From Acinetobacter phage Mokit: 64,000 nucleotides of DNA. Positions 3,563 through 46,922 of this stretch are shown one piece after another. The DNA lies in sequence record MW388002.1. One strand, written 5' to 3'. Made by a program: the position numbers and the translations under genes. The notes under the pieces were generated by a model. The model was not told where the DNA came from. It searched no databases and was given only the letters and a program-made list of their open reading frames with translations. Numbering within the stretch: position 1 is the stretch's first letter; every line of letters begins with the position of its first letter.

Positions 3563-3874
3563 TTAATATGTAAACATTTTCTTTTTACTTTTAATGTCAG
3601 CCATTTGCAATTGAATGATATACTCTACATGCTTTGTTAATTCATCCTTTCTGTCTTCGCTTGGCGTAGAAAAATCATATGAAACACTATTAGCATTTAT
3701 TGTAATATCATGGATATACACAATATGGTCTGATCCGTCTTCAAGCTTAATCAAGATTTCTTGTTTGACATCTTTCATTGCCTCTCTAATGATACCTAAA
3801 GACTTTTCGTATAGTGCTCCGGATGGGCCTCTGCTGTCATTAGCTGTATTAAGATCTTCATCGTTAGTGGACAT
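3563..3874 (-). CDS. hypothetical protein (104 aa) at 3' end of the modification module
   Basis: ORF trimmed to the ATG at 3872-3874 (GGAG SD; TAAtaATG junction with 3877..4995). Confidence 0.5.
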   Translation of the reverse strand: MSTNDEDLNTANDSRGPSGALYEKSLGIIREAMKDVKQEILIKLEDGSDHIVYIHDITINANSVSYDFSTPSEDRKDELTKHVEYIIQLQMADIKSKKKMFTY

Positions 3875-3876
3875 AT

Positions 3877-4995
3877 TTACTCCAGAAGTGCCTTTTCCCA
3901 TAGTGCAAATACACGTTCAGGGCGGTATTGTTCGTATAATGCATTCGCACGATTTACTCGTTGTTCAAATGTATCGGTGAAATTATTTAACGCATCAGAA
4001 TAAGCTGCAATAATTTCCTCGGATGTCATACCGTCATCAATCCATACAACTTGTGTAGTTGGATCGTGTTCTAACGTGGCATGACTATAGCCTCGTTGAA
4101 TAAGTTGTAATACTGGAACACCCTTTTCAATCGCTTCCATTGAGCCATGTTCAATAGTACCGGTATCATGACAAGTATTTACAAGAACTAGTGCTTCTTT
4201 AATTGTATCTTGGATTGCTTTACGAGGTATATCCATATGCACAAAAGGCTCTTTAAGATATTTCTTTGGAGGTGCCCACTGTCTTGGCAAGAATGCAATA
4301 ATTTTATGTGGACAATGTTTCATTGCTTCTAATGCTACATTTGTCTTTCTAAATTTTAAGTCATACCGTTGAGCTTGTACTACATATCCCTTTGATGGCA
4401 AAACTTCTGGCGGATTCTCGATTAACGTAGCTGGAAAGAAATTATCAGAGATGATGTCATTCTTAGCCCAATAATCAAAATCAATGGCACCTACCGCTAA
4501 ACGTCTGTTCATTTTTGAATAAACTTTAGATGTCAAATCTTTAAAGGTTTGAGTAGGAACTAAATTTTTACCGCCATTCTGGTGAATGAATACCGCAGTG
4601 CGCCAAATAGAAACAAGTGTGCGAATTGTAGGGTCAAGTGGAGTGGCCAATAAATTTCGAATCTTTGGTCCAAGCCCTAGTTTAATTAAACCATTGATAA
4701 CACCTTTTGCTGCCTCTACAGTTACGATAGCATCGTATTGGGAGCAATCAAGTTCTGCAATTTTTTCAATGATCTTTTTACCATGTTTTACCGTATATTT
4801 GTCAACAATCGGATAGTCAATAGAGATTGGGTTTACTTTGTAAGGTCCAAATGTTTCATCGCCAAATGCAATATAATCAATTTGATGCTTCTTGCTCATC
4901 GTTTTGATAAAGTTCAATTGGACCGATTCAAGGCCACCTGAAATATAGTTGGCATTAAAAGTAATAAATCGACATGGAATGTATAAGATTTTCAT
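3877..4995 (-). CDS. putative DNA glycosyltransferase, paralog A (candidate hmC arabinosyl/glycosyl transferase)
   Basis: 372 aa; strongly similar to the adjacent 373-aa ORF (MKILY[IL]PCR..GGLE[SA]VQ.NFI...IDY[IV]AFGDE..LATPLDP); position of T4 beta-gt relative to gene 42. Confidence 0.6.
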   Translation of the reverse strand: MKILYIPCRFITFNANYISGGLESVQLNFIKTMSKKHQIDYIAFGDETFGPYKVNPISIDYPIVDKYTVKHGKKIIEKIAELDCSQYDAIVTVEAAKGVINGLIKLGLGPKIRNLLATPLDPTIRTLVSIWRTAVFIHQNGGKNLVPTQTFKDLTSKVYSKMNRRLAVGAIDFDYWAKNDIISDNFFPATLIENPPEVLPSKGYVVQAQRYDLKFRKTNVALEAMKHCPHKIIAFLPRQWAPPKKYLKEPFVHMDIPRKAIQDTIKEALVLVNTCHDTGTIEHGSMEAIEKGVPVLQLIQRGYSHATLEHDPTTQVVWIDDGMTSEEIIAAYSDALNNFTDTFEQRVNRANALYEQYRPERVFALWEKALLE

Positions 4996-5048
4996 GTTTC
5001 ATCTCAAAGAAAGTGTAGTAGTATTTATGGAGCCCGAAGGCTCCATTT

Positions 5049-5064
5049 TCAGAATTATTTTAAA
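5049..5064 (-). terminator. UUCG-tetraloop hairpin between the two glycosyltransferase paralogs
   Basis: ggagcccgaaggctcc. Confidence 0.5.
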
Positions 5065-6176
5065 ACAGCTTCCCAGAGCTTAAAGTACGCTTCTTCATTA
5101 AATTTCTTATAAAGATATTCTGCTCTTGCAACTCGTTGCTCATATGTATCTTCAAAATCATTTAATGCCTTGGCATATAACTCGATTAGTTCTTGAGTGC
5201 TTGCGCCTTCTTCAAATTCAACTCGAACAGTATTAGGGTCGTACTCAAATGTAGCATGGTTGTATCCTTTTTGAATTAGTTGAAGTACTGGCGTACCTTG
5301 TGAGATTGCCTCAAGTGAGCCATTCTCTACTGTGCCAGTGTTGTGGCAAGTATTAACAAGAAGTTTTGCTGTCGAAATTTCGGTTTGAACTGCTTGTCGT
5401 TTTGCATCAATAATTACCCAATGGTCTTGTTTGAGCCATTTCTTACCCGGAGCCCATTTAGAAGGACAAAAGGCAATCTTAGGACCATTGTATAATTCCA
5501 TTGCGCCGAATGCAACGCTTGATTTTCTAAACGTATTATCAAATCGTTGGGCTTGAACAATGTGTCCTTCAGATTCAAGAACTGTTGGGCGTTCGCTAAT
5601 AAGAATAGGTGGATAAAATTCATCCGCAATAATATCATTAGCTTGCCAGTAATCAAAATCAATAACTTCTGCAGCAATTCGTTCATTCATTTTTGAATAA
5701 ACATTTGCAGCTAAGTCTTTAAAGGTTTGAGTTGGGACAATATTTTTTCCACCTAGTTTATGAACCATCACTGCATTATTCCAACATTGAACAATACCTC
5801 GAACTGATGGATCAAGAGGTGTCGCAAGAATATTCCGAACTTTTGAAATTTGTCCAAGCTCGGCGAGCGTATTGAGGACCATTTTGCTACCTTCAATAAT
5901 TACAATAGCATCATATTGATCCCAGTCTGTAATTTCTTGAAGTTTGTATTTGATTTTATATGCATGGGCAGTTGTAAACTTGGCTCCAATCGGTTTGTCA
6001 ATAGATAATGTATTGACCTTTACGTCACCAAATTCTTCATCGCCAAATGCAACATAATCGATATCATGGACCTTAGACAAATTCACAATAAAATTATATT
6101 GAACTGCTTCAAGGCCGCCATCAACACGTTTAATGTTAAAAGGCACAGAACGACAAGGTAAGTATAAAATTTTCAT
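5055..6176 (-). CDS. putative DNA glycosyltransferase, paralog B
   Basis: Paralog of 3877..4995; start trimmed to the ATG at 6174-6176 (TAAtATG junction with the kinase gene). Confidence 0.6.
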   Translation of the reverse strand: MKILYLPCRSVPFNIKRVDGGLEAVQYNFIVNLSKVHDIDYVAFGDEEFGDVKVNTLSIDKPIGAKFTTAHAYKIKYKLQEITDWDQYDAIVIIEGSKMVLNTLAELGQISKVRNILATPLDPSVRGIVQCWNNAVMVHKLGGKNIVPTQTFKDLAANVYSKMNERIAAEVIDFDYWQANDIIADEFYPPILISERPTVLESEGHIVQAQRFDNTFRKSSVAFGAMELYNGPKIAFCPSKWAPGKKWLKQDHWVIIDAKRQAVQTEISTAKLLVNTCHNTGTVENGSLEAISQGTPVLQLIQKGYNHATFEYDPNTVRVEFEEGASTQELIELYAKALNDFEDTYEQRVARAEYLYKKFNEEAYFKLWEAVLK

Positions 6177-6177
6177 A

Positions 6178-6720
6178 TTAAGGTCCAATAAATTCTTCAA
6201 TTTTTAAGTCTTCCATTACTTTTTCAAATGGAACGATATCGTTAATATTGTTGTACACATCATGGTCAAGAATTTGATATGGAGTTATTCCAAATTCATT
6301 GTACACGTCTTCAAATTTGTCAACAATTGCATTAAATTGTTCTTCACTAATCGAAATCAAATCATCTGCAAAGCTGTCATTAAGTTTATTACGTGTAAGA
6401 CCGACCACTAAGACATCATTTTGTTTGATGAATCTTTTGAAATCATCTTTGAAAATTTGGGTCGGTTTGCCACGAAGAACACTTTCATATACAATGTTAC
6501 TTAAACCGCCACGATCAAGAATATATGTTGTGTCACTATCAACAAATCTCAACATTGTTTCAAATATCGCAACTTCATTTCGAGATACACAAGTGAAACG
6601 ACCTTCACTTGTGCGTTTAGGAAATGGCATCAACACTGCAGGAGTGAATCGTTCTAGATTTGATATGAACGTAGTTTTGCCTGCATTGTCAGGACCTTCA
6701 ACTAAGATTAGTTTTGCCAT
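6178..6720 (-). CDS. P-loop (d)NMP kinase, thymidylate-kinase-like
   Basis: LILVEGPDNAGKTT Walker A followed by DRG (DRY/DRX-like) motif; 180 aa. Confidence 0.65.
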   Translation of the reverse strand: MAKLILVEGPDNAGKTTFISNLERFTPAVLMPFPKRTSEGRFTCVSRNEVAIFETMLRFVDSDTTYILDRGGLSNIVYESVLRGKPTQIFKDDFKRFIKQNDVLVVGLTRNKLNDSFADDLISISEEQFNAIVDKFEDVYNEFGITPYQILDHDVYNNINDIVPFEKVMEDLKIEEFIGP

Positions 6721-7652
6721 ACATCACCTGTAATTAGAATATCATCAATCGTTGGTATATTATAATCACTAATAATGTTAGCATCGAAATAAATCAATTC
6801 ACCTAGTCCAGGATGAAACACATTATCTGGATTTTCATTGTAGATAATTGTGGGGTGCTGCGAAAGTACAATATAATATGAAACTTTATCTAGTTTGCAC
6901 TCCATGATCTCTAAGTCAGGGTACAATTCATCAAGCGTCGGTTTTTTATCAACAAATGTGTCATTAGGATCAGTAATGAGCAATATGTTCCCAGTTTCAG
7001 CACAAGTCTTGGCAACACTCATGAAATCATAACATGGATCAGATATTCTAAATGGAAAGAAAACCATGTTTGAATTGAGAGGCTGAATTTCAGAATAGTC
7101 AATACGATTAGTATAACGTTCAATTACACTTGGGTTAACCACTTTCTGGGAAACAGTGATTTTTTCCGCAGAAATGCCACTTGCAACAAATTCATCCTTT
7201 TGGTTTTGATTAAGTACAAATACTTTTATTGCAGATTGAGCACTTTCGAGATCTTTTTCCCACCACTTATCGATATACAATCGCGTCAATCCAGAAACTT
7301 TAGAAATATTAGCATTGAAAATAAATTCATGTGTACCGTTATATCCAGTGATGTCAGTAATCAATGTATCAAGATTGTATACTTTCATAATCTCATCAAC
7401 ATTTTCTTGATTCCATGTCCAGAACCAATGACGTGTTTCATCTGCATTGAAGCCATAATGAAATTGAACAAATTTGAAATCCGGGAACAAGTATGTCAAA
7501 TCGCCCATGTCAGAAATGTCAAAAGGCACTGCAATCAAATCACCTGGTTGTGCACGATGTAAATGCAATTGAAAGTTACCGTCCTTGAGGACGGAATACT
7601 TTCTTGTGCTATACGATCGCATCGAAAAAATTGGTACAATCATTCTAGCCAT
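6708..7652 (-). CDS. hypothetical protein (314 aa) inside the modification module; no recognizable motif
   Basis: Long ORF, ATG at 7650-7652, 13-nt overlap with the downstream kinase gene. Confidence 0.55.
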   Translation of the reverse strand: MARMIVPIFSMRSYSTRKYSVLKDGNFQLHLHRAQPGDLIAVPFDISDMGDLTYLFPDFKFVQFHYGFNADETRHWFWTWNQENVDEIMKVYNLDTLITDITGYNGTHEFIFNANISKVSGLTRLYIDKWWEKDLESAQSAIKVFVLNQNQKDEFVASGISAEKITVSQKVVNPSVIERYTNRIDYSEIQPLNSNMVFFPFRISDPCYDFMSVAKTCAETGNILLITDPNDTFVDKKPTLDELYPDLEIMECKLDKVSYYIVLSQHPTIIYNENPDNVFHPGLGELIYFDANIISDYNIPTIDDILITGDVWQN

Positions 7653-7657
7653 ATCGT

Positions 7658-8362
7658 TTATCCTAAAAAGTTTTTAACGTAATCTAAATCACGTTCAAAT
7701 ACATGAGCAGAAACAATAGAATGTGCATAAGTGCCTAATTCAACATTGCATTCTTTTGAGATATATTCCATGAATCGATGCATCAAATAAAAATCAAGCT
7801 GCATAACTACTGCACAGTTTTGACTTCTCATATGTGTATGCATGTACAAACGTCCTTCACGAATATAAAAGGTAACAGAATCTGTACAAGGATATTCTAG
7901 TGATTCATCTGCATCTAAAAGCACTTGATCTTGCTCTTGCAGAATTTGAAAAACTACACGCCGTGAGTTCGGTTTTTCTTTAAGCTCTTTGATAAGGGCC
8001 GGTAACTGTGAAACAATTCGTGGGCCATAGAAGGTATTGAAATTTGCAGGTAAAGCATCCGTTTTCGGTTTCGCAATAAATTTCGCGACATTTGGATAGT
8101 CCTTAAACGCTTGTTCCGCATCTGTGCCACCTTGAATCATGAATTCCCAGAATTTTTCCGCATAACCATAATCAATACGATTAATATTTTTATCTTTGAA
8201 AACCGCACCGGTATCTGGAAGTGCTACTTCTAAAAGAATTGATCCGATTTCACGACATTTGCCAATACGAGAATCCGTGACAAATTCAGGTTCAGTAATC
8301 ACTAGATAATTGAGTCGCTTGAATGCTTCTTCAAATGTGCTAGCTAAAATATACTTTGGCAT
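7658..8362 (-). CDS. 42: dCMP hydroxymethylase (ThyA-family; T4 gp42 homolog)
   Basis: EYPCTDSV (catalytic Cys, cf. T4 MCTNTV) and HMRSQN (cf. T4 MRSNDV); the Asp aligned to T4 D179 suggests cytosine specificity; synteny between 41 and 43. Confidence 0.75.
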   Translation of the reverse strand: MPKYILASTFEEAFKRLNYLVITEPEFVTDSRIGKCREIGSILLEVALPDTGAVFKDKNINRIDYGYAEKFWEFMIQGGTDAEQAFKDYPNVAKFIAKPKTDALPANFNTFYGPRIVSQLPALIKELKEKPNSRRVVFQILQEQDQVLLDADESLEYPCTDSVTFYIREGRLYMHTHMRSQNCAVVMQLDFYLMHRFMEYISKECNVELGTYAHSIVSAHVFERDLDYVKNFLG

Positions 8363-8364
8363 TA

Positions 8365-8742
8365 TTACACCTCCGGTACGTATGGATGTTTAGATAATAA
8401 TTCATTATTACGAAAAGCGTCTTTGAATTCCTTAGGATTTAATGCTTTATCGTCAATGATCCAGTCATACACAGGTTTGTGTGTGAGTAATTGATGATAT
8501 TTCAGTTTAATTTTTTCAAGATTTTTAACTAATGCGGGCACAATAGCTCGGCTTATTGCATCTGAACCTACTGATGTCATGCCACGTGCAGTGAACAGTG
8601 TTATATGATGCCCTTGATCATATAACTCATTGATCATTGATACCATTTCAAGATCAGGTTTGAAATTTTCATAGTCACGACTATCATCCCAAAGAGTGAT
8701 AGTGTTATCTATGTCAAAACAAAATTGTTTTGGTCGAATCAT
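8365..8742 (-). CDS. HAD-superfamily phosphatase (small, 125 aa)
   Basis: N-terminal FDIDNTIT (DxDxT motif I); ..FTARG.. region. Confidence 0.65.
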   Translation of the reverse strand: MIRPKQFCFDIDNTITLWDDSRDYENFKPDLEMVSMINELYDQGHHITLFTARGMTSVGSDAISRAIVPALVKNLEKIKLKYHQLLTHKPVYDWIIDDKALNPKEFKDAFRNNELLSKHPYVPEV

Positions 8743-10412
8743 TGAATTTTCTCCCAGTGCATATCACCGATAAATTTCGAAGGGCGATATTTTTCACCTG
8801 TTTCAAGATCAGTTAATAGCCATTTGTCTGTATTTTTTGTAGATAGTACTGCATGAACTAATCCTGAATCATGAGCCACTGATCCATCTTTCAAACGACG
8901 TCCCATTTTATCAAGAGCAGTCGTTAACAAATACATACCGTAGTAGAATGCACTAACGGATTTCAATGGATTATTTTTGAAATATCCTGCAAGAGCAATC
9001 CAAATCACTGCAACCCAGAGATGATGGTATTCGTTAAAATATTTACTATGAAGAGATGTTACGCTTAATGGCTCGATATTGATCGTTGCAGCATTACCGT
9101 TGATGGCTAATCCACCCCACATATGATCTGAATTAAATTTATCATAACCTGATAATGCATAAAGCACTTTAGCTTCATCATAAATTCGCGGCCCATAGAT
9201 TTTTGTTTTGCCAAAATAGCCACGTGGATCAATTAGTCGAACTTCACCATTTTGATCAAGCATCAAATTACTAAAGTTTGGATCACCGTGAATAACGTAA
9301 TAGTCTTTGTCACTAGCCTCATATGTTAAATGCGCAAAGGCTTGATTTAACATTGTTTCTAAACGTCCAATTTTGACATTGTTTACATATTCGATGTCGC
9401 CAAATGATTTAATGACTCCTTTAATTTCATCACAACGGCTCATGACTTTGACAATGACCTCATATTGATAATCATTGATGATCTGTTCACGAGATGTAAA
9501 TTCTGGCATTTTATCAAATTTGAGAGTCTCGAGAATTTTCGGCAATAATTCTGGCGTATACACTTCAAACATCGGTTTGCCGATGATACGTTCCATTTTG
9601 AATGACATCATTTTGTCAGTTTCACGATGATCAAGAATTTTTGGCAATGCAGGGCTATCAACCTTTGCATACCATGCAAGTTCTTCTTTTTGCAATTGAC
9701 GTCCTTTTTCATTGATCGCCGCTTTATAAACGACACCTGAGGCCATAGTCACTTGGTTGAATTCACGATTAAGTTCACGATTACGATGTGCAATTTCAAG
9801 CTTAGGCTTGTCCCCTAAGTCAACTAAATTAAGCAAATAATCTTGATAAAACGCTTCATTTGTCGTGTCAATTAATTCAACAAAATCACGCCCTTTGAAG
9901 AACTCATTAGCTTCATCTTTATCTTTGATACGCGAAATAAAGAAATCACGATATTGATATACGCCTACAACGTTACCGCCTGTACCAACAATGTGTTCTT
10001 TCAAAGTTTTACCATTGTAGCTATATCGACATTCATCGCCAAAGGTATAGATTGCATTTGCATCCCATCGAAATGCATCAAAATCCGGGATGACATCACA
10101 CCAGTTAAAAACAACGTTGTGACCGTTGACATGATCTGCTAATCTAGAAATTGCATAAGCCGAACCATACGCTTCATCGACAGTTTCGACAACAATGTCA
10201 AGCCCGAACAACTTTGCATATTCTTTAACTTGTGAAGCAAACTTGCTATGAACAGCCACAATAATTTGTTCAGCACCAAGTCTAGTGTACAATGAATATA
10301 AATGATGCAAAATTGTGTGTTGCTTATAATTCACTAAGACTTTAGGAATATGATGGGTGATTGGATATAGGCGAGTTGCAAGTCCTGCACCTAAAATTAC
10401 GACTTTTTTCAT
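8739..10412 (-). CDS. bifunctional sugar-1-phosphate nucleotidyltransferase (N-term) / APH-ChoK-type sugar (anomeric) kinase (C-term)
   Basis: N-term KVVILGAGLATRLYPIT..PKVLV (GxGxRLxPxT NTP-transferase signature); C-term YYVIHGDPNFSNLMLDQNGEVRLIDPRGYFG (HGDxxxxN ... IDxxG kinase catalytic/DFG-like loops). Confidence 0.7.
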   Translation of the reverse strand: MKKVVILGAGLATRLYPITHHIPKVLVNYKQHTILHHLYSLYTRLGAEQIIVAVHSKFASQVKEYAKLFGLDIVVETVDEAYGSAYAISRLADHVNGHNVVFNWCDVIPDFDAFRWDANAIYTFGDECRYSYNGKTLKEHIVGTGGNVVGVYQYRDFFISRIKDKDEANEFFKGRDFVELIDTTNEAFYQDYLLNLVDLGDKPKLEIAHRNRELNREFNQVTMASGVVYKAAINEKGRQLQKEELAWYAKVDSPALPKILDHRETDKMMSFKMERIIGKPMFEVYTPELLPKILETLKFDKMPEFTSREQIINDYQYEVIVKVMSRCDEIKGVIKSFGDIEYVNNVKIGRLETMLNQAFAHLTYEASDKDYYVIHGDPNFSNLMLDQNGEVRLIDPRGYFGKTKIYGPRIYDEAKVLYALSGYDKFNSDHMWGGLAINGNAATINIEPLSVTSLHSKYFNEYHHLWVAVIWIALAGYFKNNPLKSVSAFYYGMYLLTTALDKMGRRLKDGSVAHDSGLVHAVLSTKNTDKWLLTDLETGEKYRPSKFIGDMHWEKIQ

Positions 10413-10442
10413 ATTGTTTATTCCTAAGAAAGAACTATGACA

Positions 10443-10471
10443 ATTATATCATAGTTCTTATGTAAAGTAAA
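10443..10471 (-). promoter_or_regulatory. early promoter for the NTase/kinase gene; -10 inside the palindrome aagaactatga...tcatagttctt
   Basis: rc: TTTACTttacataagaactatgaTATAATtgtcatagttctt. Confidence 0.6.
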
Positions 10472-11104
10472 TTATTTTGATTCAGATTTGAGCATTGCTC
10501 CAAGTGAACCACCTGGATGGTATGAATAAAAATCTTCACGAGTGAATCTAAGGTGTTTAGACAAAATTACACCAATAGTATCCAACAAAACCAATAGCAC
10601 TGTTGTACTTGTTGTGGGTGCAAGATGATTATCATCGCATTCGACAATGCCTGGAATACCAAATTCGATGTCAAATGGCGCCTTTTGTTCTTCAGTTAAC
10701 TGGCTATTGCAGTGCAACAAGATTTGAAGAACATTAGGACGAATAGTCTTCAAATGGCGCGCCATATATTGCATTTCTTCTGTTTTACCAGAACGCGAAA
10801 CATGAATAACTATGTCATCATGTCCGATAAATCCTGCATCGCCATGAGAATAATGGCACGTGTTCAAATACATAGACGGGATGCCAAGGCTTGCAAATGT
10901 TTCAGACGCCTTAGTTGCAAGATTTGAATTTTTACCTACGCCAGTAATCACGATGCGTTGACGATAGTTTGATGCTGCAACTACCTTTAGAATATCAATC
11001 ATGTTTGAATATTTGTCGCCATTTACCGCGATAGCAGTATGAAGATAATCTAATGCATCATTTTGATCTTCAACTACTTTTAATGCTAAATCGATGTTAT
11101 CCAT
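10472..11104 (-). CDS. arabinose-5-phosphate isomerase-like SIS-domain protein (KdsD/KpsF/GutQ family) lacking CBS domains
   Basis: RIVITGVGKNS..HGDAGFI..SRSGKT..LAPTTSTT..YHPGGSLG align with the KdsD SIS-domain motifs (HGDLGMI, SYSGET, LAPTSSTT, SHPGGALG); 210 aa. Confidence 0.75.
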   Translation of the reverse strand: MDNIDLALKVVEDQNDALDYLHTAIAVNGDKYSNMIDILKVVAASNYRQRIVITGVGKNSNLATKASETFASLGIPSMYLNTCHYSHGDAGFIGHDDIVIHVSRSGKTEEMQYMARHLKTIRPNVLQILLHCNSQLTEEQKAPFDIEFGIPGIVECDDNHLAPTTSTTVLLVLLDTIGVILSKHLRFTREDFYSYHPGGSLGAMLKSESK

Positions 11105-13814: not shown

Positions 13815-15044
13815 TTAAAAATCGAACATATCCATCAACGATGAACGTTTTTCTGCTTGCATACCTGCAGATTCACACATACCTTCAAGAGGCTTTTTGT
13901 ATGTTTTACCAAATAAGTCCATGACATCCATATGCTTTAGAACATCTGCACGAATTTCTTTAGGCAATTCATTACCTGATGGCCATGCAATACACTTGTC
14001 ACCAAATGGATTTCCAGGTTTAAGAGGCAAGATCATTACCTTTTCGCCTTCTGAAATATCTGGCAAGTTATCGTATTTCTTAATTGCACGTCGGTATGTA
14101 AGAACACCACGAACATGACTTGGACATTTAAGACCCGGGAATCCATTCACATCATATTTTGCAATATTATTTGCAGAACGAACACCAGCAATTACTTTAT
14201 AATCAAGATTTCTGAATTCGTTTTCAAATTTCTTGAAATACTCTTGTAATGGTTTTTCACCTTCTTGGAGCATAATACGAATACTTTCTAACAATGCATC
14301 TTTGACCGCTTTAGGCGTTGATGATTGTTGAGTTTCCATGCCCATGATTTTTAAGTATGGCTCTTTGAAACGTGTACCTTCCATGTCATAGACATTAAGT
14401 GCATATCGTTTCTTGGCACGCCAGAATCCGCCGATGCCGTTAGAACCAAGTGGTGGGCATGCAATAGCTTCACGATCCATAAACATCAATTGTTCATAGT
14501 TGTTGAGATATTCACACATCTCTTTAAACCCATCATTAATAACTGGTTCGATTTTCTTCGAAGCTACTGCATCTAAAAAGTCAACAAGCTTTTCAGTCGA
14601 TGAGAATTTATCGATGCCAACTTTTTCGATTAATGGGCTTAGTTCGATATACAATGAGTCAGTATCGCCATAAATAACATAAGGGTGATCTGTAGTTCCA
14701 CATAGTTCGTTTAAGTATGCATTAATCTTTCGTTCAGTCCATTGAAGAACCATTTGCCCAAAGATTGTAATAGCTTCAGCATTTCTAAGATCGTAAAATC
14801 TAAAATAGATGTTACCGAGTGCGCCATATAAACTGTTAATTAATAGCTTTCGGTTAATTTGATTTGTATCACATAAAGTGATGTAATTTTCACATTGTGT
14901 TTCAAGTGCATTGAGTTCTTCTTGTGAAAGAGATTTGAGATATTCAATTTCACTTTCGGTGAAGTCTCGACTAAAATCAAGATTCATATAATCTCCAAAG
15001 ATAGGGTTTATTGACTCAAATGGGATATGATAACATTTTATCAT
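13815..15044 (-). CDS. 43B: DNA polymerase gp43 C-terminal subunit (43B: fingers/palm/thumb)
   Basis: NRKLLINSLYGALGNIYFRFYDLRNAEAITIFGQ and motif C VIYGDTDSLYIE colinear with T4 gp43 from about residue 520 to the C-terminus; alternative start ATG 14985-14987 (GGAG SD). Confidence 0.88.
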   Translation of the reverse strand: MIKCYHIPFESINPIFGDYMNLDFSRDFTESEIEYLKSLSQEELNALETQCENYITLCDTNQINRKLLINSLYGALGNIYFRFYDLRNAEAITIFGQMVLQWTERKINAYLNELCGTTDHPYVIYGDTDSLYIELSPLIEKVGIDKFSSTEKLVDFLDAVASKKIEPVINDGFKEMCEYLNNYEQLMFMDREAIACPPLGSNGIGGFWRAKKRYALNVYDMEGTRFKEPYLKIMGMETQQSSTPKAVKDALLESIRIMLQEGEKPLQEYFKKFENEFRNLDYKVIAGVRSANNIAKYDVNGFPGLKCPSHVRGVLTYRRAIKKYDNLPDISEGEKVMILPLKPGNPFGDKCIAWPSGNELPKEIRADVLKHMDVMDLFGKTYKKPLEGMCESAGMQAEKRSSLMDMFDF

Positions 15045-15086
15045 ATCCCTGATATAAGCTTAGCGGTAACTAAGTTGTAACACTAA

Positions 15087-15284
15087 TTAGAACATTGCGT
15101 TGACAAGCTCAGAACCTGCAGCTAAAGGATTCTTGAACATCAATGCACCAGTAACGAACCCAACAATGAACAACAATGGGATGCATATACCTACACCTAC
15201 AACAACCCGATACCATAATGCGGCAGTTTCAGAAAAATTTTCTGCATTCTCATTAGCAATACGAATTTGACTAAAAATATTCAT
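15087..15284 (-). CDS. small membrane protein in the gp43 split insert
   Basis: 65 aa with hydrophobic core. Confidence 0.4.
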   Translation of the reverse strand: MNIFSQIRIANENAENFSETAALWYRVVVGVGICIPLLFIVGFVTGALMFKNPLAAGSELVNAMF

Positions 15285-15598
15285 AGGCCTATCTCCCTAA
15301 AACATTGAAATAATAAACGATTTATTTCCAATTCTTTGCGAACAGATTCATTCATTAACTGTATGACTGTATTAATATCTGATTGGCTGGAGCAGCGTGC
15401 ATTGAGCACAGTTTCTGCATTTTTACGACACATGTCAAATGTATTAAAATATCCTGAATAGCGAGGCAATGTGATGGCTTCAAGGACATTAGGCATCCAT
15501 GAAAGGTGGAACTTTTCATCAATTTCGCCTATAGTAAATAGTGTTGTTTGACAACCTTGAATTTCATCAAACTCTTCAATGGATTTATATACTCTCAT
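15281..15598 (-). CDS. hypothetical protein in the gp43 split insert
   Basis: 105-aa ORF. Confidence 0.45.
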   Translation of the reverse strand: MRVYKSIEEFDEIQGCQTTLFTIGEIDEKFHLSWMPNVLEAITLPRYSGYFNTFDMCRKNAETVLNARCSSQSDINTVIQLMNESVRKELEINRLLFQCFREIGL

Positions 15599-15909
15599 TT
15601 ATTTAACACCAGTCTAAATTCAGGAAATCTAGCTTCACACTCACGAGAAGCCATTTCAAAAATATTCATAATATCATATATAGTTGAAGGAGTATTTGGC
15701 AAGCCAATAATACTATTCAATCCATTAGTAACAAAATCATTTATAAATGAAATTATATCTTCACCATCTTTAAATTTCAATGCTTTATGAATAAATTCAG
15801 CGGATAGTTCAGCATTACAAGTACCATTATAATGAATTGCACTTAATGGCCACACATTAATAAATGTTTCTCCTTCAGGAGTGATTATTACATCTCTTTC
15901 AATATTCAT
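15595..15909 (-). CDS. hypothetical protein in the gp43 split insert
   Basis: 104-aa ORF, ATG 15907-15909, downstream of repeat-A promoter. Confidence 0.45.
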   Translation of the reverse strand: MNIERDVIITPEGETFINVWPLSAIHYNGTCNAELSAEFIHKALKFKDGEDIISFINDFVTNGLNSIIGLPNTPSTIYDIMNIFEMASRECEARFPEFRLVLNK

Positions 15910-15984
15910 ATCATACTCGACAATATTCAGATTTCGGCGCGAAGCGCCGGCTGCGCAGCAGCTATTCTAGTCCAACGGAACGGC

Positions 15985-16022
15985 TAAATTTAGAGCGGTG
16001 AACCGGTAGAACCATTATAACA
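15985..16022 (-). repeat. 38-bp element (copy A): early-promoter -10 plus leader; perfect inverted copy at 47552-47589
   Basis: taaatttagagcggtgaaccggtagaaccattataaca; its rc is identical to 47552-47589. Confidence 0.85.
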
Positions 16023-16028
16023 CAAAAA

Positions 16029-16058
16029 ATTCGTAAAGCATGTGTGTGCTTTACGAAT
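16029..16058. other. 30-nt perfect hairpin (12-bp stem) adjacent to the copy-A promoter; contains a TGCTTTA MotA-box-like sequence
   Basis: attcgtaaagca-tgtgtg-tgctttacgaat. Confidence 0.6.
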
Positions 16059-16078
16059 GTAGATTAATTAATAGACAC

Positions 16079-16303
16079 TTAATTTTTATCGTATAGTTCC
16101 TTTATACACATTGATTTATATTCTAAAACTTCGGTGGCAGTCATAAACGCCATATCCTTTTCACTCTGCGTGTTCCGAGATTTAATTTGAACCAATGTAT
16201 TATGATCTATATTTACTCTAGGTACACAATCTCTGCGAACACCTGGTGTTATGATTTCACAAGGAAATTTTTCTACTATTTCTTTAATCATTTCATATGT
16301 CAT
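16079..16303 (-). CDS. hypothetical protein in the gp43 split insert
   Basis: 74-aa ORF downstream of early promoter 16331-16359. Confidence 0.4.
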   Translation of the reverse strand: MTYEMIKEIVEKFPCEIITPGVRRDCVPRVNIDHNTLVQIKSRNTQSEKDMAFMTATEVLEYKSMCIKELYDKN

Positions 16304-16330
16304 AATGAATTCCTCTGATTTATAAGAATG

Positions 16331-16359
16331 ATTATATCATAATCAAAAAGCAAAGTAAA
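16331..16359 (-). promoter_or_regulatory. early promoter inside the gp43 split insert
   Basis: rc: TTTACTttgctttttgattatgaTATAATcattc. Confidence 0.55.
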
Positions 16360-16380
16360 CAAATTTTAGAGAAAAAGAAA

Positions 16381-16394
16381 GGGACCGAAGTCCC
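16381..16394 (-). terminator. UUCG-tetraloop hairpin in the gp43 split insert
   Basis: gggaccgaagtccc. Confidence 0.5.
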
Positions 16395-16414
16395 TTATGA
16401 AAGATATATAAGTT

Positions 16415-16705
16415 TTAAACGATACTATACATTGTTACTGCGATCGGAAGAATTTCATTTGTCAGAGCTTTAAGATTTTCTTCAGTGATTTTAGTATCTT
16501 GGAAACGATGAACAATACGTTCAATTTCAACTACCTTTTGTTTATTTGTTTCACGATCACGTGGATCAATTACTAATTTAATATTGCTGCCTTTAAATTC
16601 TAGAGCAAGAATGCCTAATGTAATTTTTGCATCCATTGAACGAGTAGAACGAGTGTCAATTACTGGAGCTGCTGTGTTAAATGCTAATTTAGATTGAGTG
16701 ATCAT
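16415..16705 (-). CDS. hypothetical protein (start trimmed to MITQSK, downstream of promoter 16734-16762)
   Basis: Listed ORF start 16765 lies upstream of the promoter -10; internal ATG 16703-16705. Confidence 0.4.
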   Translation of the reverse strand: MITQSKLAFNTAAPVIDTRSTRSMDAKITLGILALEFKGSNIKLVIDPRDRETNKQKVVEIERIVHRFQDTKITEENLKALTNEILPIAVTMYSIV

Positions 16706-16733
16706 AATATACTTCTCTGTAGTTGATAGGACT

Positions 16734-16762
16734 ATTATAACAATAGTCCTATCAAAAGTAAA
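16734..16762 (-). promoter_or_regulatory. early promoter immediately after 43A; -10 inside the palindrome gataggact...agtcctatc
   Basis: rc: TTTACTtttgataggactattgTTATAATagtcctatc. Confidence 0.6.
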
Positions 16763-16765
16763 CAT

Positions 16766-18274
16766 TTATTTGATTAATTTTTTAATCAATTCTGCATTAC
16801 GTTTTGCAGCCATCATTTTGTTCTTCCATTCTTTACGTTGAAAGAACACTTTAGTAATTTCTTGTGGAATAATGCCTTGTTTAGTTTTCAAATACATCAT
16901 ACCACTAGGTGAACATGAGAATTCTTCTGATGGACTAGGCGCAATTTTGTTAATAAAATCAGATAACTTTGGAGGCGCAAATTGTCCGGCAATAGTTTCT
17001 GGGCTGATATTAACTTGACGAATAATAGATGGATATAACGATGTTACATCAAATGATACAACATATTTGTATGCGCCAGGTTTAGGTTCTTTAACATATG
17101 CTCCTGAATACGATTGGCGAATATTTGGTTTACTTTCGGGTAAAACTAAATGATCAGCTTTTAAAGAGTTGAACAAAATTGCATCCCAGGTTTTTACTGG
17201 GCTCATTACTGTTGCAATGTTCATTCGTGCATAATAACCCATTGAAATTGATAGATTAATAAATCCACGTTTTGCATCAATTGCTTGAACACAGTACACG
17301 TCAATAATGTTATATGAAATGTAACGTTGATGATTTGATCCACGTAGTTTATCGATTGGGCCGTCATATTCTAATTTGTTGATCCCGGCTTCATACTCTG
17401 CAATATAATCAAGCTTATATGATGGCTGAGACGTGAAAGCAAACTTTTTATACAAATCTAGATAATCGAGAATCATTACTCCAGAAATGTTGAAAATTTC
17501 TTTATCACCGTACATGTTTGTAATAACTTTTGATGTAATCTTACCAAATGGACTTAAACGGGACATGCCTGAAACGCCTAAAACGTTTTTGATTCGATTG
17601 ACAATGTATGGAATATCAAAACCTTCTACGTTCCATCCAGTGAAAATAACAGGTGTGTGTTTTTCCCAGAACTCAACGTACGCCAACAGCATTTCACGTT
17701 CAGATTCATACGATTGATACACCACTTTATCCAAAATATGTTGTGGCACTTCATCACCACCTTCTTCAATTGATTTTGCTGCAAGTTCTTTAGACCATTT
17801 AGTAACACGTCCTCGAGCAGAATTTAGCAAATCAAATACAAAATACTTGTCTTCAATTGAGTCATAATGTGTAATAGCATCAATTTCATACTTTGCAAAA
17901 GTTGGATCTGGGAATTCACCTGCAGTTACCTCAATGTCACAGTTAGCAACACGAATAGCATCGCGACTGTAAGTAATTTCCTTTTTGCCATAAATATCTG
18001 AAATGTATGCAAGTCTAAAGTCATCCATGCCAAGGATTTCTACAATACCACGAGTTTTTTGCATCCAGTCTTTTGCTTCACGAATAGATCCAAATCGTTT
18101 TGGCATACATGGCTTACCATAGATGTCTTTATATTTTGTGTTTGTGCCATCTTTAGCATGAATAAAAAGAGTAGGTTCATATGGAATTTCACGAATTTTT
18201 TCAATGCCATCTTCAACATAACGTTCTTGAATGCGATCACCTGACTGTTCAACAACTAAATAAAAATTAGACAT
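16766..18274 (-). CDS. 43A: DNA polymerase gp43 N-terminal subunit (43A: N-terminal/3'-5' exonuclease domains plus motif A)
   Basis: Colinear with T4 gp43 residues 1-~500 (FYL..E..G..ERY, KYKDIYGK, DIEVT, FTGWN[IV]EGFD[IV]PYI, SFD[LV]TSLYPSIIRQ); ends at TAA where T4 continues. Confidence 0.88.
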   Translation of the reverse strand: MSNFYLVVEQSGDRIQERYVEDGIEKIREIPYEPTLFIHAKDGTNTKYKDIYGKPCMPKRFGSIREAKDWMQKTRGIVEILGMDDFRLAYISDIYGKKEITYSRDAIRVANCDIEVTAGEFPDPTFAKYEIDAITHYDSIEDKYFVFDLLNSARGRVTKWSKELAAKSIEEGGDEVPQHILDKVVYQSYESEREMLLAYVEFWEKHTPVIFTGWNVEGFDIPYIVNRIKNVLGVSGMSRLSPFGKITSKVITNMYGDKEIFNISGVMILDYLDLYKKFAFTSQPSYKLDYIAEYEAGINKLEYDGPIDKLRGSNHQRYISYNIIDVYCVQAIDAKRGFINLSISMGYYARMNIATVMSPVKTWDAILFNSLKADHLVLPESKPNIRQSYSGAYVKEPKPGAYKYVVSFDVTSLYPSIIRQVNISPETIAGQFAPPKLSDFINKIAPSPSEEFSCSPSGMMYLKTKQGIIPQEITKVFFQRKEWKNKMMAAKRNAELIKKLIK

Positions 18275-22209: not shown

Positions 22210-23891
22210 TACGACTCCATAATTGTAAAACGTCCGACTTTTTTCATCTGCAAATGCTGGCCATAGTCTTGAGGATTATGATCTCTATGCGAAATGATAA
22301 AAATATTCGAATCTTTCATGTTGTTTAAAATTGTTGTTACCGATTTTGTTGCAGCACTGTCAAAGGCGCCGTCAAAAACTTCATCTAAGAATAGGCAAGA
22401 GATCTTGATACCGGATATTTTTTCTGCAATATCACGCCAAGTAAACATTAACGCCAAATCAATTCGTCCTTTTTCTCCTTGAGAAAAAGATGCATATGAA
22501 AAGTCTTCACGACCGCGAGATTTAATTGTTTCTGAAAATTCTTCATCTAATGTGAATGAATAGTCAGCTTCCATCATCTCTAAATATGAATTAATTTGTT
22601 TGTTGAATATCGGAATATATTTTTTGATAATAGAGCCTTTAATGCCTGAATCTTTCAACATTTCGGTAATTACAGATCGCCTTTGTTTTTCGATAACTAA
22701 ATTGCTCTTTTGTTGAATATCGTTGACCAATGACTCTTTGAGTGCATCAATTTCAGAAGTGTTATCAACAAAATCTTTCTTAGCTTCTTCTAAAGCGCTG
22801 TTAATTGTTTTGACACGTTGAACCTGTTGTAATGCCAATTGCCGATTAGTAGCAATTTTGTTTTCTATTACACGAATTTTTTCTCTTGCTTCTAAGTGTG
22901 CTACCTTTCTTGCATGCACCTCTGCATGAATTTCTTTCAGCTCTTCAAATTTTGCAGTCAATTCATTTTTTGATTGTTCAATTTTATCGACTAATGAATC
23001 ATCAGAAAGTAATTGAAGGCAGGTAGGACAAGAACCACCATTCTCATACAATTTTAATACACGTATAGTAGAATTAAGTTCACTTTCTGCACGGACCACT
23101 GCACTATGTGCATTACGGCTTTCATCTGATGGATCTTCGCCTGCATCAATCTGTACAACTTGAAGATTATACTCTTGGTTTTCGGCCTTTATTCGATCAA
23201 TTTCTTGAATTGCTTGCTCTTTCATTGCTTCAAATCTAGCAATGTTATCACCTGAAAGTTTCTTTTGACGTTCAGCTGCCGCGGTTAAAGTTTGGATTTG
23301 TGTTTGAGTATGAGTAATACTCATTTCGATTTTAGCCAGCTCAGCGTTGATATTTCGAATTTCTTCTTTATTCAACTTATCCATATCTGCTAAAACAGAA
23401 ACTTCTAATAAATCTTCAACTAGTTTCCGACGTGCACCTGCAGATAGGCTCATAAATGGCGTATAACCTGCCGTTCCAAGAACTACCACCTGTTTGTATG
23501 AGTTGTAGTTCATGCCAATCATTGTTTCGAATTCACTTTGAAAATCTTTGACACTTGCCGCAGCGTCTAACACAACACCGTCTTTTTTGACTTCGAAGAT
23601 ATTTGGTTTGATTCCGCGTTTAATGACATAAACACTATTGTTATATTCCATTTCGAGTACAACTAACAGCCCCTTCTTATTGATACTATTAAGAAGTTGG
23701 CCTTTCTTAATATCACGAAATGGCTTGCCAAATAGTGCAAAAGTGATTGCTTCTAATAACGTGGATTTGCCTCCGCCATTAGCTCCTGTGATGAGTGTCT
23801 TATGAGCCTTATTAAGCTGTATGATAATGGGCGCGTCTCCTACCGACATAATATTACGGTACTCAATGCTATTCAGTTTAAAAGTTTTCAT
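22209..23891 (-). CDS. 46: recombination nuclease subunit gp46 (Rad50/SbcC-like)
   Basis: N-term GANGGGKST Walker A, long coiled coil, C-term signature/Walker B (LFLDEVFD); 560 aa as in T4. Confidence 0.9.
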   Translation of the reverse strand: MKTFKLNSIEYRNIMSVGDAPIIIQLNKAHKTLITGANGGGKSTLLEAITFALFGKPFRDIKKGQLLNSINKKGLLVVLEMEYNNSVYVIKRGIKPNIFEVKKDGVVLDAAASVKDFQSEFETMIGMNYNSYKQVVVLGTAGYTPFMSLSAGARRKLVEDLLEVSVLADMDKLNKEEIRNINAELAKIEMSITHTQTQIQTLTAAAERQKKLSGDNIARFEAMKEQAIQEIDRIKAENQEYNLQVVQIDAGEDPSDESRNAHSAVVRAESELNSTIRVLKLYENGGSCPTCLQLLSDDSLVDKIEQSKNELTAKFEELKEIHAEVHARKVAHLEAREKIRVIENKIATNRQLALQQVQRVKTINSALEEAKKDFVDNTSEIDALKESLVNDIQQKSNLVIEKQRRSVITEMLKDSGIKGSIIKKYIPIFNKQINSYLEMMEADYSFTLDEEFSETIKSRGREDFSYASFSQGEKGRIDLALMFTWRDIAEKISGIKISCLFLDEVFDGAFDSAATKSVTTILNNMKDSNIFIISHRDHNPQDYGQHLQMKKVGRFTIMES

Positions 23892-41942: not shown

Positions 41943-41962
41943 AATCTTCTCCAAAAGAAATA

Positions 41963-42051: not shown

Positions 42052-42057
42052 AAAAAA

Positions 42058-42348: not shown

Positions 42349-42400
42349 ATTTAATTAACATGACGACCTAGGAATTTACGCCATTAGGACACCTAGGACC

Positions 42401-42751: not shown

Positions 42752-42757
42752 ATTATA

Positions 42758-45959: not shown

Positions 45960-46201
45960 TATTCTAAAGGCTCATCAACAGCTTCAACCGGCGCATTATC
46001 TGCAACTAATGCTGCAACAGTTTGAACAATTCGATCTAATTCAAGGTTACCAGTTTCATCAGGTTCAAGACCAATTACTTGACAGATCGATTGTAATGTT
46101 TGTGATAATTGTTGATTGTGCTGATGAAGCGATTGATTTGCTTCAATTGCATCCAATAATTTAGCTTTGGTTTCGAGCAGTGTTTGATTAACGTCTGACA
46201 T
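45959..46201 (-). CDS. 57A: tail-fiber assembly chaperone gp57A
   Basis: MSDVNQTLLETKAKLLDAIEANQ.. coiled coil of ~80 aa like T4 gp57A; ATG 46199-46201 overlapping the gene 1 stop. Confidence 0.7.
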   Translation of the reverse strand: MSDVNQTLLETKAKLLDAIEANQSLHQHNQQLSQTLQSICQVIGLEPDETGNLELDRIVQTVAALVADNAPVEAVDEPLE

Positions 46202-46922
46202 TTTGTAATACCTCTGTGTGAAACAAATTTGAAATCTTTTCGTAGAACTCTTCGATTGTGCCATTATTTTCAATGACTGCATCTCCAAGTCGTCTTCCAA
46301 GACCAGCTTCTGTAATATGCTGATCTGTTGTGGTAGTATTTATTATATCACGTTCTACAAAAACTGTCATTGCTTTAATATGACGCATAAAGTCAATTTC
46401 ATGTTTTTGGCGAATATCAGAAACAATGAATAATTTACTTCCGGATGCAAATGCGTTAATGTATTCAATCATCATGAGCTTCAGCCAGAAATGTTTATCA
46501 TGTGTGTTGACAACAATATCTGTACCTAGAGTTTGCATCAATCTACGAACTGACCAACTTAAACTATTTTTACGTATTGCATTTATTGCATTGAGTTTGT
46601 CTAAAAATCCATTAGGTTCAACAGTTTTTAGCCCATATTCATCTTGCAAAATTTCTATAGACTTATGCATTAAATCTACAACATTTGCATTAGATAACAT
46701 TAATGAAGTTTCACGATCATAATCGGTTTCGCCATTAAAGTCGGCAAAGGTTAAGCCTACACCGGTTTGATCAACTAAATGCAATTCTTCATATGCTCGC
46801 GCCAAAACAAGCTTAATTGGCGTTGCCAATGCATATTTTCTTGCGTTTAATTTAGTCACCATAAAATCAGCCATAGTGTCTTTGCCACTACGCTTCTTGC
46901 CTACAATAGAAACAATTGTCAT
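46188..46922 (-). CDS. 1: deoxynucleoside monophosphate kinase gp1
   Basis: SIVGKKRSGKDTMADFM matches the T4 gp1 P-loop (GVKRSGKDTTADFI); 244 aa. Confidence 0.85.
   Translation of the reverse strand: MTIVSIVGKKRSGKDTMADFMVTKLNARKYALATPIKLVLARAYEELHLVDQTGVGLTFADFNGETDYDRETSLMLSNANVVDLMHKSIEILQDEYGLKTVEPNGFLDKLNAINAIRKNSLSWSVRRLMQTLGTDIVVNTHDKHFWLKLMMIEYINAFASGSKLFIVSDIRQKHEIDFMRHIKAMTVFVERDIINTTTTDQHITEAGLGRRLGDAVIENNGTIEEFYEKISNLFHTEVLQNVRR

Follow-up and report, generated by a model that had tools for sequence, protein, structure and literature searches.

An arabinosyl-5-hydroxycytosine DNA modification module predicted in Acinetobacter phage Mokit

Which modified base, and which sugar, is made by the compact block of leftward genes that lies in the genome of Acinetobacter phage Mokit where phage T4 keeps its DNA glucosylation genes? 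The block was analysed within a single stretch of 64,000 nucleotides (sequence record MW388002.1), referred to here as the window. An earlier note on this DNA had read positions 3563–11104 as a contiguous sugar-hypermodification pathway built around a homologue of T4 gene 42, in which arabinose would be attached to 5-hydroxymethylcytosine (hmC), and had proposed that it represents a lineage different from the known ones. The answer reached here keeps the sugar and changes the base. To judge from its sequence, the block is very probably the arabinosyl-5-hydroxycytosine (ara-5hoC) DNA hypermodification module of a Melin-like T4-type phage of Acinetobacter baumannii, belonging to the genus Hadassahvirus. 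The system is already known, and its identification in Mokit leaves no novelty in the main claim.

Translation of the window gave eight tightly packed open reading frames (ORFs) at 3877–11104, all of them on the minus strand. The eight ORFs and their positions had been described correctly, yet the left edge of the interval had been set too far out. Positions 3563–3876 encode a T4 gene 40-type head-vertex assembly chaperone (Pfam PF11113, E 3.6e-22), and since this protein has none of the eight functions, the module proper is taken to span 3877–11104. The motifs that had been quoted in support (YPCT, HMRSQN, HGDAGFI, SRSGKT, LAPTTSTT, YHPGGSLG and DIDNT) were all found in the translations. Comparison of gene order also bears out the placement in the b-gt/gene 42 slot of T4, as the block is flanked by genes 41/40 and by the gene for DNA polymerase, where T4 carries uvsX, segA, b-gt and gene 42.

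The nearest relative is Acinetobacter phage Melin (MW388003; Straboviridae, Twarogvirinae, Hadassahvirus), whose module is 100% identical to that of the window; beyond the module, the window and the Melin record (MW388003.1) are 98.9–99.9% identical, with a 2-bp offset downstream. The nucleotide identity of the module is 95.6% to phage Maestro and about 78% to phage DLP3. To establish orthology, the annotated genes of DLP3, Maestro, RB69 and T4 were translated and compared with the window proteins. Each of the eight proteins had the positionally equivalent gene as its best match, and the order was the same as that of DLP3 gp76–gp83. The protein identities were 97.4–99.2% with Maestro, 45–71% with the RB69 counterparts and, for DLP3, 83.6% (gp76), 91.4% (gp77), 72.8% (gp78), 69.8% (gp79), 87.6% (gp80), 82.4% (gp81), 73.7% (gp82) and 79.3% (gp83). 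In DLP3, gp76 and gp77 are described as beta-arabinosyltransferases, gp78 as a nucleotide kinase, gp79 as alpha-arabinosyltransferase 1 (AraT1), gp80 as the hydroxylase, gp81 as a HAD phosphatase, gp82 as a nucleotidyltransferase/kinase fusion and gp83 as an arabinose-5-phosphate isomerase (PMC13326640). The profile searches agree with the functions assigned in the earlier note, and the view of the locus as one contiguous sugar-hypermodification module of DNA is upheld. With regard to the whole Straboviridae ara-5hoC module, the hydroxylase, AraT1, the TMK-like kinase, the isomerase, the HAD phosphatase and the fusion are co-located in Mokit, with the dCTPase and the deoxynucleoside monophosphate (dNMP) kinase elsewhere. 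The suggestion of a different lineage does not survive: 55 Acinetobacter phage records contain this eight-gene block, the block of DLP3 has been characterised, and the modification has been reported for Maestro.

The identity of the base depends on the ThyA homologue (7658..8362, minus strand, 234 aa), for which a predicted function as a flavin- and O2-dependent 5-hydroxy-dCMP (5hodCMP) synthase of the ThyA superfamily is proposed. The protein matches Pfam Thymidylat_synt with E 1.9e-14. A residue alignment of this homologue with E. coli ThyA, T4 gp42 and the Maestro, DLP3 and RB69 enzymes, read in E. coli numbering, showed that the catalytic C146 is invariant and that the window protein reads YPCT...HMRSQNCAVVMQLD, with E at position 143, N at 169 and D at 177. 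The changes L143E and N177D are those of all cytosine-specific, non-methylating members, and the Asp that the earlier note had placed at the cytosine-specifying position is indeed there, as N177D. At the D169 position, the window protein has "RSQN", whereas T4 gp42 has "RSND" and E. coli ThyA "RSCD". Identity was 97.4% to the Maestro enzyme and 70.8% to RB69 gp48, compared with 21.8% over 147 aa (E 5e-8) for T4 gp42. In a sequence search of the PDB, the phage "thymidylate synthase" chains 9iqu/9iqc/9ir2 were matched at E ~1e-110 and ~70% identity, followed by MilA (E 4.7e-10) and by true thymidylate synthases at 1e-8 or weaker. By tblastn, the hydroxylase showed ~68–100% identity over Straboviridae with arabinosylation clusters and then a drop to <=31%; phage homologues annotated as T4-type hydroxymethylase stayed at <=27%.

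The meaning of these residues has been established in related phages. Lee and others described that D169N is a signature of all 5hodCMP-producing enzymes and that N177D confers the preference for dCMP, with E or D taking the place of L143; when nine further homologues were picked by D169N, 9/9 made 5-hydroxydeoxycytidine (5hodC) (PMC13326640). DLP3 gp80 and RB69 gp48 make 5-hydroxy-dCMP in vivo, with incorporation of 18O from O2 and co-purification of flavin (PMC13326640), and the work cited there includes a flavin-containing crystal structure of the homologue from HY126 (PMC13326640). For an expressed orthologous enzyme, a 243-Da nucleoside was reported. In the DNA of DLP3 and RB69, all cytosines are replaced by arabinosylated 5-hydroxycytosine, as determined by tandem mass spectrometry (MS/MS) and nuclear magnetic resonance (NMR) (Lee et al., NAR 2026, PMC13326640), and the sugar is joined straight to C5 via an ether oxygen, with a base ion of m/z 128.05 in place of the 142.06 expected for hmC (PMC13326640). 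Taking D169N ("RSQN") and the identities together, the ThyA homologue reads as a hydroxylase and not as a hydroxymethylase; the protein is thus predicted to be a dCMP C5 hydroxylase, and the base to be 5-hydroxycytosine (5hoC) instead of hmC. The assignment of this gene as a dCMP hydroxymethylase has accordingly to be withdrawn, and with it the support that had been sought in RB69: the modification was named ara-hmC in a 2018 RB69 paper, and later papers regard that assignment as erroneous and correct it to 5-hydroxycytosine. A gp42-type hydroxymethylase was also considered as a class for the protein and was rejected, as the Asp at the D169 position is not kept and the protein does not cluster with gp42 orthologues.

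The sugar is indicated by the three genes to the right of the hydroxylase gene. The last of the block (10472..11104, minus strand, 210 aa; orthologous to DLP3 gp83 and RB69 gp55) encodes a predicted arabinose-5-phosphate isomerase that consists of a SIS domain without the CBS pair. Matches were obtained with Pfam SIS (E 5.5e-6), with PHROG 5670 "arabinose 5-phosphate isomerase" (E 1.8e-101) and, among NCBIfam profiles, with KpsF/GutQ (kpsF; E 5.9e-31), KdsD (E 2.2e-27) and GutQ (E 1.4e-23); the PDB matches were to solved arabinose-5-phosphate isomerases (5uqi, E 3.4e-27; 3etn; 2xhz). The protein is 99.0% identical to its Maestro counterpart and 56.1% to RB69 gp55. The tandem CBS domains of canonical KdsD/GutQ are absent: the matches span positions 47–202 of the 328 of the KdsD profile, and the scores of this 210-aa single-domain protein fall below the cut-offs for full-length KdsD/KpsF. 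Single-domain isomerases of this kind exist, as exemplified by 5uqi (198 aa), 3etn (220 aa) and RB69 gp55 (211 aa). The description of a CBS-less KdsD/KpsF/GutQ-type SIS isomerase therefore stands, given that every NCBIfam and PDB match is of this type, and the interconversion of ribulose-5-phosphate and arabinose-5-phosphate has been predicted for both DLP3 gp83 and RB69 gp55 (PMC13326640). No match to GmhA was obtained in the NCBIfam profile search, and a heptose (GmhA) or other SIS family was rejected for the 210-aa protein, all NCBIfam and PDB matches being to KpsF/GutQ/KdsD or other arabinose-5-phosphate isomerases. The choice of arabinose as the sugar is consistent with these matches and with the arabinosylated DNA of the orthologous systems of DLP3 and RB69.

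The neighbouring gene (8739..10412, minus strand, 557 aa) encodes a predicted bifunctional AfhE-type kinase/nucleotidyltransferase, with the nucleotidyltransferase at the N-terminus and an APH-like kinase at the C-terminus. Both domains of the proposed fusion were found through Pfam, with NTP_transferase at residues 3–100 (E 7.3e-9) and APH/kinase-like matches at residues 351–406, and the catalytic motifs are intact (LGAGLATRL, which corresponds to the signature GxGxRL, and the catalytic loop of the kinase, HGDPNFSN...IDPRG). PHROG 4098 matches over the full length (E 1.7e-241), and identity was 97.8% to Maestro and 51–58% to RB69 gp52/53. Domains and motifs place the protein in the AfhE type, and its putative catalytic role is carried over by analogy from AfhE of HY126. 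Next to it, a predicted small HAD phosphatase of the AfhF type (8365..8742, minus strand, 125 aa) bears the FDIDNT (DxDxT) motif. This phosphatase, 97.6% identical to that of Maestro and 59.2% to RB69 gp51, matched the NCBIfam EcbF/BcbF capsule phosphatase (E 7.7e-11) and, in the PDB, 9iqw (E 1.1e-44) and 1xpj (E 7.7e-10); motif and 9iqw match confirm the HAD call made previously. Its probable role, the conversion of arabinofuranose-1,5-bisphosphate into arabinofuranose-1-phosphate (Araf1P), is borrowed from HY126 AfhF. The PDB chains 9iqc/9iqu/9ir2, 9iqw and 9iqz/9ir0 have codes from a single series and are presumably the HY126 set cited by Lee and others.

According to the summary of He et al. 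given in PMC13326640, the AfhE fusion of HY126 converts arabinofuranose-5-phosphate (Araf5P) into arabinofuranose-1,5-bisphosphate (Araf-1,5-P2) and later makes UDP-arabinofuranose (UDP-Araf) with UTP, and in the same summary AfhF, the HAD protein, strips the 5-phosphate to yield Araf1P (He et al., as cited in PMC13326640). This route modifies the sequence that the earlier note had drawn, from ribulose-5-phosphate through arabinose-5-phosphate, arabinose and arabinose-1-phosphate to a nucleoside diphosphate arabinose. Arabinose-5-phosphate and the nucleotide-activated arabinose remain in the scheme, and free arabinose is lost from it, as HY126 proceeds via the 1,5-bisphosphate.

Three glycosyltransferases complete the module. 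The 314-aa protein encoded between the hydroxylase and the TMK-like kinase (6708..7652, minus strand) had been listed as unknown, and sequence searches of Pfam, NCBIfam and the PDB gave no match for it. An AlphaFold2 model computed from a 42-sequence homologue alignment was confident (mean pLDDT 94.7, pTM 0.91), and with Foldseek against the PDB it retrieved GT-B folds at E 1e-7 to 1e-6, including UDP-GlcNAc 2-epimerases, MshA (3c48/3c4q), PimB' (3oka) and BGluT (9v0l), a tetrahydrobiopterin glucosyltransferase. Identity was 97.8% to the Maestro protein and 46–48% to RB69 gp46:47. With this modelled fold and its orthology to DLP3 gp79, the protein can be predicted to be a third GT-B transferase, the first (alpha) arabinosyltransferase AraT1, in line with the published assignment of gp79. 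A non-enzymatic or unrelated role for this ORF was rejected on the basis of the GT-B fold of the confident model. The sequence cluster that holds the 314-aa protein bears the name of phage Minot.

The other two transferases are paralogues, 55.4% identical to each other, and both are predicted GT4-like GT-B beta-arabinosyltransferases. Paralogue A (3877..4995, minus strand, 372 aa; orthologue of DLP3 gp76) matches PHROG 8302 (E 2.7e-183) and the PDB entries 9iqz/9ir0, "Glycosyltransferase subfamily 4-like..." (E 5.4e-88), carries the EX7E-type motif EHGSMEAIE and is 99.2% identical to Maestro and 41% to RB69 gp3. Paralogue B (5055..6176, minus strand, 373 aa from ATG, the mechanical ORF extending to a TTG at 6200; orthologue of DLP3 gp77) matches PHROG 8302 (E 2e-178), with 98.9% identity to Maestro and 43% to RB69 gp3. 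The GT-B fold is thus indicated for the 314-aa protein by its model and for the 372-aa protein by its match to the solved chain 9iqz. That the two paralogues of about 372 aa are glycosyltransferases adding multiple sugars, as the earlier note had supposed, finds support in PHROG 8302, 9iqz/9ir0 and the orthology with DLP3 gp76/gp77.

In DLP3, the glycan was determined by MS/MS and NMR as beta-D-Araf-(1,5)-beta-D-Araf-(1,3)-alpha-D-Araf on 5-hydroxy-dC (PMC13326640). The DNA of RB69 contains mono- and di-arabinosyl forms, and the number of sugars per base is one in Thanatos, two in RB69 and three in DLP3 (PMC13326640). By using purified DLP3 gp76 and gp77 together with UDP-Araf, a third arabinose was added to RB69 DNA in vitro (PMC13326640). 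In the phage collection, the beta-transferase family comprises 210 records, with one copy per genome in Mosigvirus-like coliphages and two in 53 Acinetobacter phages, a distribution in keeping with a number of sugars that is one, two or three depending on the lineage.

Based on these data, a pathway of three branches can be proposed for Mokit, under the premise, which we infer from orthology, that the activities found in the relatives carry over to this phage. In the nucleotide branch, the phage dCTPase would supply dCMP, and the ThyA-superfamily enzyme (7658–8362) would convert it with flavin and O2 into 5-hydroxy-dCMP, an activity demonstrated in orthologues. The gp1-type dNMP kinase (46188–46922), together with the host nucleoside diphosphate kinase, would then carry 5hodCMP through 5hodCDP to the triphosphate; the TMK-like kinase of the module may add to the phosphorylation of 5hodCMP, a role that we likewise infer. 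The phage polymerase would incorporate 5hoC in place of all C. In the sugar branch, the SIS isomerase would turn ribulose-5-phosphate into D-arabinofuranose-5-phosphate, the C-terminal kinase domain of the fusion would give Araf-1,5-bisphosphate, the HAD phosphatase would take off the 5-phosphate to leave Araf1P, and the N-terminal nucleotidyltransferase would join Araf1P and UTP into UDP-Araf; the AfhE and AfhF steps have been demonstrated with the HY126 enzymes. In the transfer branch, the 314-aa GT-B enzyme would place the first alpha-Araf on the 5-OH, and the 372/373-aa GT4-like paralogues would then extend it with beta-1,3 and beta-1,5 Araf. This assignment of enzymes to sugars is a prediction, drawn from orthologues in which the structure of the glycan and the joint activity of gp76 and gp77 have been demonstrated. 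The main product predicted, by orthology, is tri-arabinosyl-5hoC, and a genome modified in this way would be shielded from type II restriction and DNA-targeting CRISPR.

The kinases of this pathway deserve a closer description. The TMK-like P-loop nucleotide kinase of the module (6178..6720, minus strand, 180 aa; orthologue of DLP3 gp78 and RB69 gp45) has the P-loop GPDNAGKT and matches PHROG 761 "thymidylate kinase" with E 2.7e-29, with weak TMK matches in Pfam and NCBIfam; P-loop and PHROG match sustain the TMK-like call, and DLP3 gp78 is listed just as a "nucleotide kinase" (PMC13326640). The gp1-type dNMP kinase is an accessory enzyme encoded outside the module (46188..46922, minus strand, 244 aa), annotated in Melin as deoxynucleotide monophosphate kinase. 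In RB69 the corresponding enzyme, gp159, phosphorylates 5hodCMP, and the in vivo assay was run with co-expression of the cognate dNMP kinases (PMC13326640). The dCTPase, known by annotation, lies at 23237–23755 of the Melin record, about 9 kb before the start of the window.

To follow the distribution of these genes, hydroxylase homologues at >=60% identity were counted in the phage collection. The hydroxylase was found in 341 records, the first transferase in 347 and the TMK-like kinase in 342, and the breakdown by genus was essentially equal for the three genes (Escherichia 177, Acinetobacter 55, Klebsiella 25–26, Shigella 15). This near one-to-one co-occurrence indicates that the TMK-like kinase belongs to the core of the module and is inherited with it. 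Its co-inheritance with the hydroxylase and the first transferase also suggests a pre-replicative reading, which we consider unlikely, in which the TMK-like enzyme would be a dedicated kinase for the modified mononucleotide: 5-hydroxy-dCMP would receive its first arabinose ahead of replication, and the nucleotide built into DNA by the polymerase would already carry the sugar. Lee and others point out that their data cannot tell the mononucleotide from DNA as the acceptor of the first arabinose (PMC13326640). The phages with the TMK-like kinase also have a gp1-type dNMP kinase already able to phosphorylate 5hodCMP.

Comparison with known systems places the Mokit module close to two of them. Maestro, of the same genus Hadassahvirus, has an identical architecture, including the intergenic hairpins, with point differences only, and it is named among the phages with arabinosylated 5hodC in the list compiled in PMC13326640 (Mahler et al. 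2025 and He et al. 2026, as cited there). In DLP3 (PMC13326640), the eight genes gp76–gp83 lie between genes 40 and 43 and agree with those of Mokit in kind, order and orientation; the hydroxylase signature is shared too, as is the set of two beta-transferase paralogues and one AraT1. DLP3 belongs to another genus, Lazarusvirus instead of Hadassahvirus, and the divergence of the proteins is greatest for AraT1, the TMK-like kinase and the fusion, at 70–74% identity. RB69 (Mosigvirus) is more distant. Its gp45–gp55 include orthologues of the kinase, AraT1, the hydroxylase, the HAD protein, the fusion and the isomerase in the same relative order, and RB69 shares with Mokit the flavin-dependent hydroxylase as well as the sugar route of HY126 through AfhE and AfhF; however, RB69 has a single beta-transferase (gp3), far off beside rIIA, has uvsX between gene 40 and its cluster, and has the extra gp49 and the "peptidase-like" gp50, not present in the Mokit module.

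Two further systems were compared. In T4, glucosylation of hmC occupies the same slot, with a ThyA homologue that modifies dCMP and GT-B enzymes that transfer from a UDP-sugar, and the pay-off is the same. However, the hydroxymethylation of T4 is folate-dependent, D169 is kept and gp42 is 22% identical; its donor is the UDP-glucose of the host, and T4 therefore needs no sugar-activation genes. No BLAST match was obtained between T4 beta-gt and any of the module proteins. Another example is Rhizobium phage RL38J1 (Pootjesviridae), in which a D169N hydroxylase lies beside a TMK-like kinase and a GT-B transferase and 5hoC is the attachment point. In RL38J1, though, the sugars are hexoses (galactose and glucose), a UDP-galactopyranose mutase takes the place of the arabinose branch, and the hydroxylase is ~30% identical.

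Three other explanations of the block can be weighed against the ara-5hoC module. If the ThyA homologue were a folate-dependent, gp42-type dCMP hydroxymethylase, the sugars would sit on the hydroxymethyl group and the product would be arabinosyl-hmC. The ThyA-family homology, with the catalytic Cys and an Asp at the N177 position, fits such an enzyme, as do the label "dCMP hydroxymethylase" in public records and the ara-hmC name of the 2018 RB69 paper. Yet D169N is the validated marker of 5hodCMP synthases, while T4 gp42 keeps D169, and the 21.8% identity to gp42 contrasts with 87.6% to DLP3 gp80 and 70.8% to RB69 gp48, both of which make 5hodC with oxygen from O2. With the NMR and MS of DLP3 and RB69 DNA showing a direct C5-O-sugar ether and ara-hmC called erroneous by later papers, this explanation is very unlikely. 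Even less credence, close to none, can be given to a "moron" cluster serving the capsule or lipopolysaccharide sugar metabolism of the host (Kdo, heptose, capsule). These genes lie in the early DNA-metabolism region, in the b-gt/42 slot, interleaved with the hydroxylase and a nucleotide kinase; in all the arabinosylation clusters that were compared (DLP3, Maestro and RB69) the hydroxylase is accompanied by sugar genes, and over about 340 phage genomes it is found together with AraT1 and the TMK-like kinase. What speaks for a capsule role is the KdsD/KpsF-type isomerase, the resemblance of the HAD protein to capsule-biosynthesis phosphatases and GmhB-like enzymes, and several public annotations that imply a capsule, phosphoheptose or virulence role; but no GmhA or Kdo-8-P synthase match was found with NCBIfam, orthologous transferases act on DNA in vitro, and arabinose has been shown on the DNA of DLP3 and RB69.

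The third explanation retains the module and changes its product, such that Hadassahvirus would carry another number of arabinoses, or other linkages, than DLP3. The transferase set of Mokit equals that of DLP3, with one AraT1 and two beta paralogues, 53/53 Acinetobacter records with the beta-transferase family have two copies, and Maestro, 97–99% identical, is reported with arabinosylated 5hodC. Against this, the number of sugars varies among lineages with the transferase content (Thanatos 1, RB69 2, DLP3 3), and the transferases are less like those of DLP3 than the other enzymes are (AraT1 70%, paralogue A 84%). On balance, a different product is quite unlikely, although less so than arabinosyl-hmC. 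The tri-arabinosyl-5hoC module, for its part, has points that weigh against it. The assignment to Mokit comes from orthology, albeit very close (Maestro proteins 97–99% identical). Single transferases were inactive on 5hoC DNA, and the activity of AraT1 (DLP3 gp79 type) was not reconstituted (PMC13326640). The split of the paralogues between the second and the third sugar is a proposal only; RB69 gp3 is near-equidistant from the two (41% versus 43%), so that distance does not show which of them acts second. Finally, AraT1 is just 70% identical to DLP3 gp79, and Hadassahvirus may conceivably have another linkage or sugar number.

From the D169N signature ("RSQN") and the eight-gene layout, it can be predicted that a Melin-like Acinetobacter phage used in therapy carries tri-arabinosyl-5-hydroxycytosine. 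Such a prediction bears on how the phage resists restriction enzymes and CRISPR, on nanopore base-calling, on phage cloning and engineering, and on the choice of host defence backgrounds. It is also of practical use, as many public records and PHROG names mislabel the module genes, and the earlier note had taken over the superseded ara-hmC chemistry. The labels are inconsistent and often wrong: besides "dCMP hydroxymethylase", they include "DNA alpha-glucosyltransferase", "UDP-glucose dehydrogenase", "capsular polysaccharide biosynthesis protein", "VFDB virulence factor protein" and "phosphoheptose isomerase", the last being the name of PHROG 1238, for the HAD phosphatase.

Two intergenic elements were found within the module. 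Between the isomerase gene and the fusion gene (10430..10471, minus strand), a promoter-like TTTACT-17-TATAAT after TG, with 10/12 matches in a sigma-70 scan, overlaps a 13-bp hairpin (-16.1 kcal/mol, z = -5.4). The stem of this hairpin is kept in DLP3 through compensatory changes, and in Maestro it is an annotated terminator; any function of the element would be putative, and in the sigma-70 promoter/terminator scan of the module the match counts were not above those of shuffles, with just the two intergenic hairpins standing out. The second element is a GC-rich hairpin between the transferase paralogues (5027..5046, minus strand) with a GGAGCC-UUCG-GGCUCC core (-14.5 kcal/mol, z = -4.9), whose stem is conserved in Maestro and DLP3 and whose loop differs in DLP3. 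This hairpin is a candidate terminator or mRNA stabiliser, and both hairpins could be considered candidate terminators, processing sites or stabilisers.

Other features were observed around the module. On its left, gene 40 abuts the gene of transferase paralogue A directly at the 3563–3877 junction; at this junction, the only place where it was looked for, uvsX does not stand between gene 40 and the modification genes, unlike in T4 and RB69. On the other side, the DNA polymerase gene is split on the minus strand (13815–18274) into a 502-aa N-terminal part (16766–18274) and a 409-aa C-terminal part (13815–15044), which are separated by ~1.7 kb with five small ORFs (15087–16765). The Melin record labels this gene (gp43) "intron interrupted"; no Rfam intron family reached the gathering threshold. 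PHROG 1918 profiles a stand-alone C-terminal half, and a two-gene (43A/43B-like) polymerase thus seems more likely than an intron-interrupted one. Further along, nine tRNA genes are clustered on the minus strand (41576–44755), the last of which (44681–44755) has the anticodon CTA, which reads the amber stop, and is labelled "tRNA-Pyl" by ARAGORN. Close to this tRNA, the Melin record annotates a small "peptide chain release factor"-like ORF (76257–76493 of that record).

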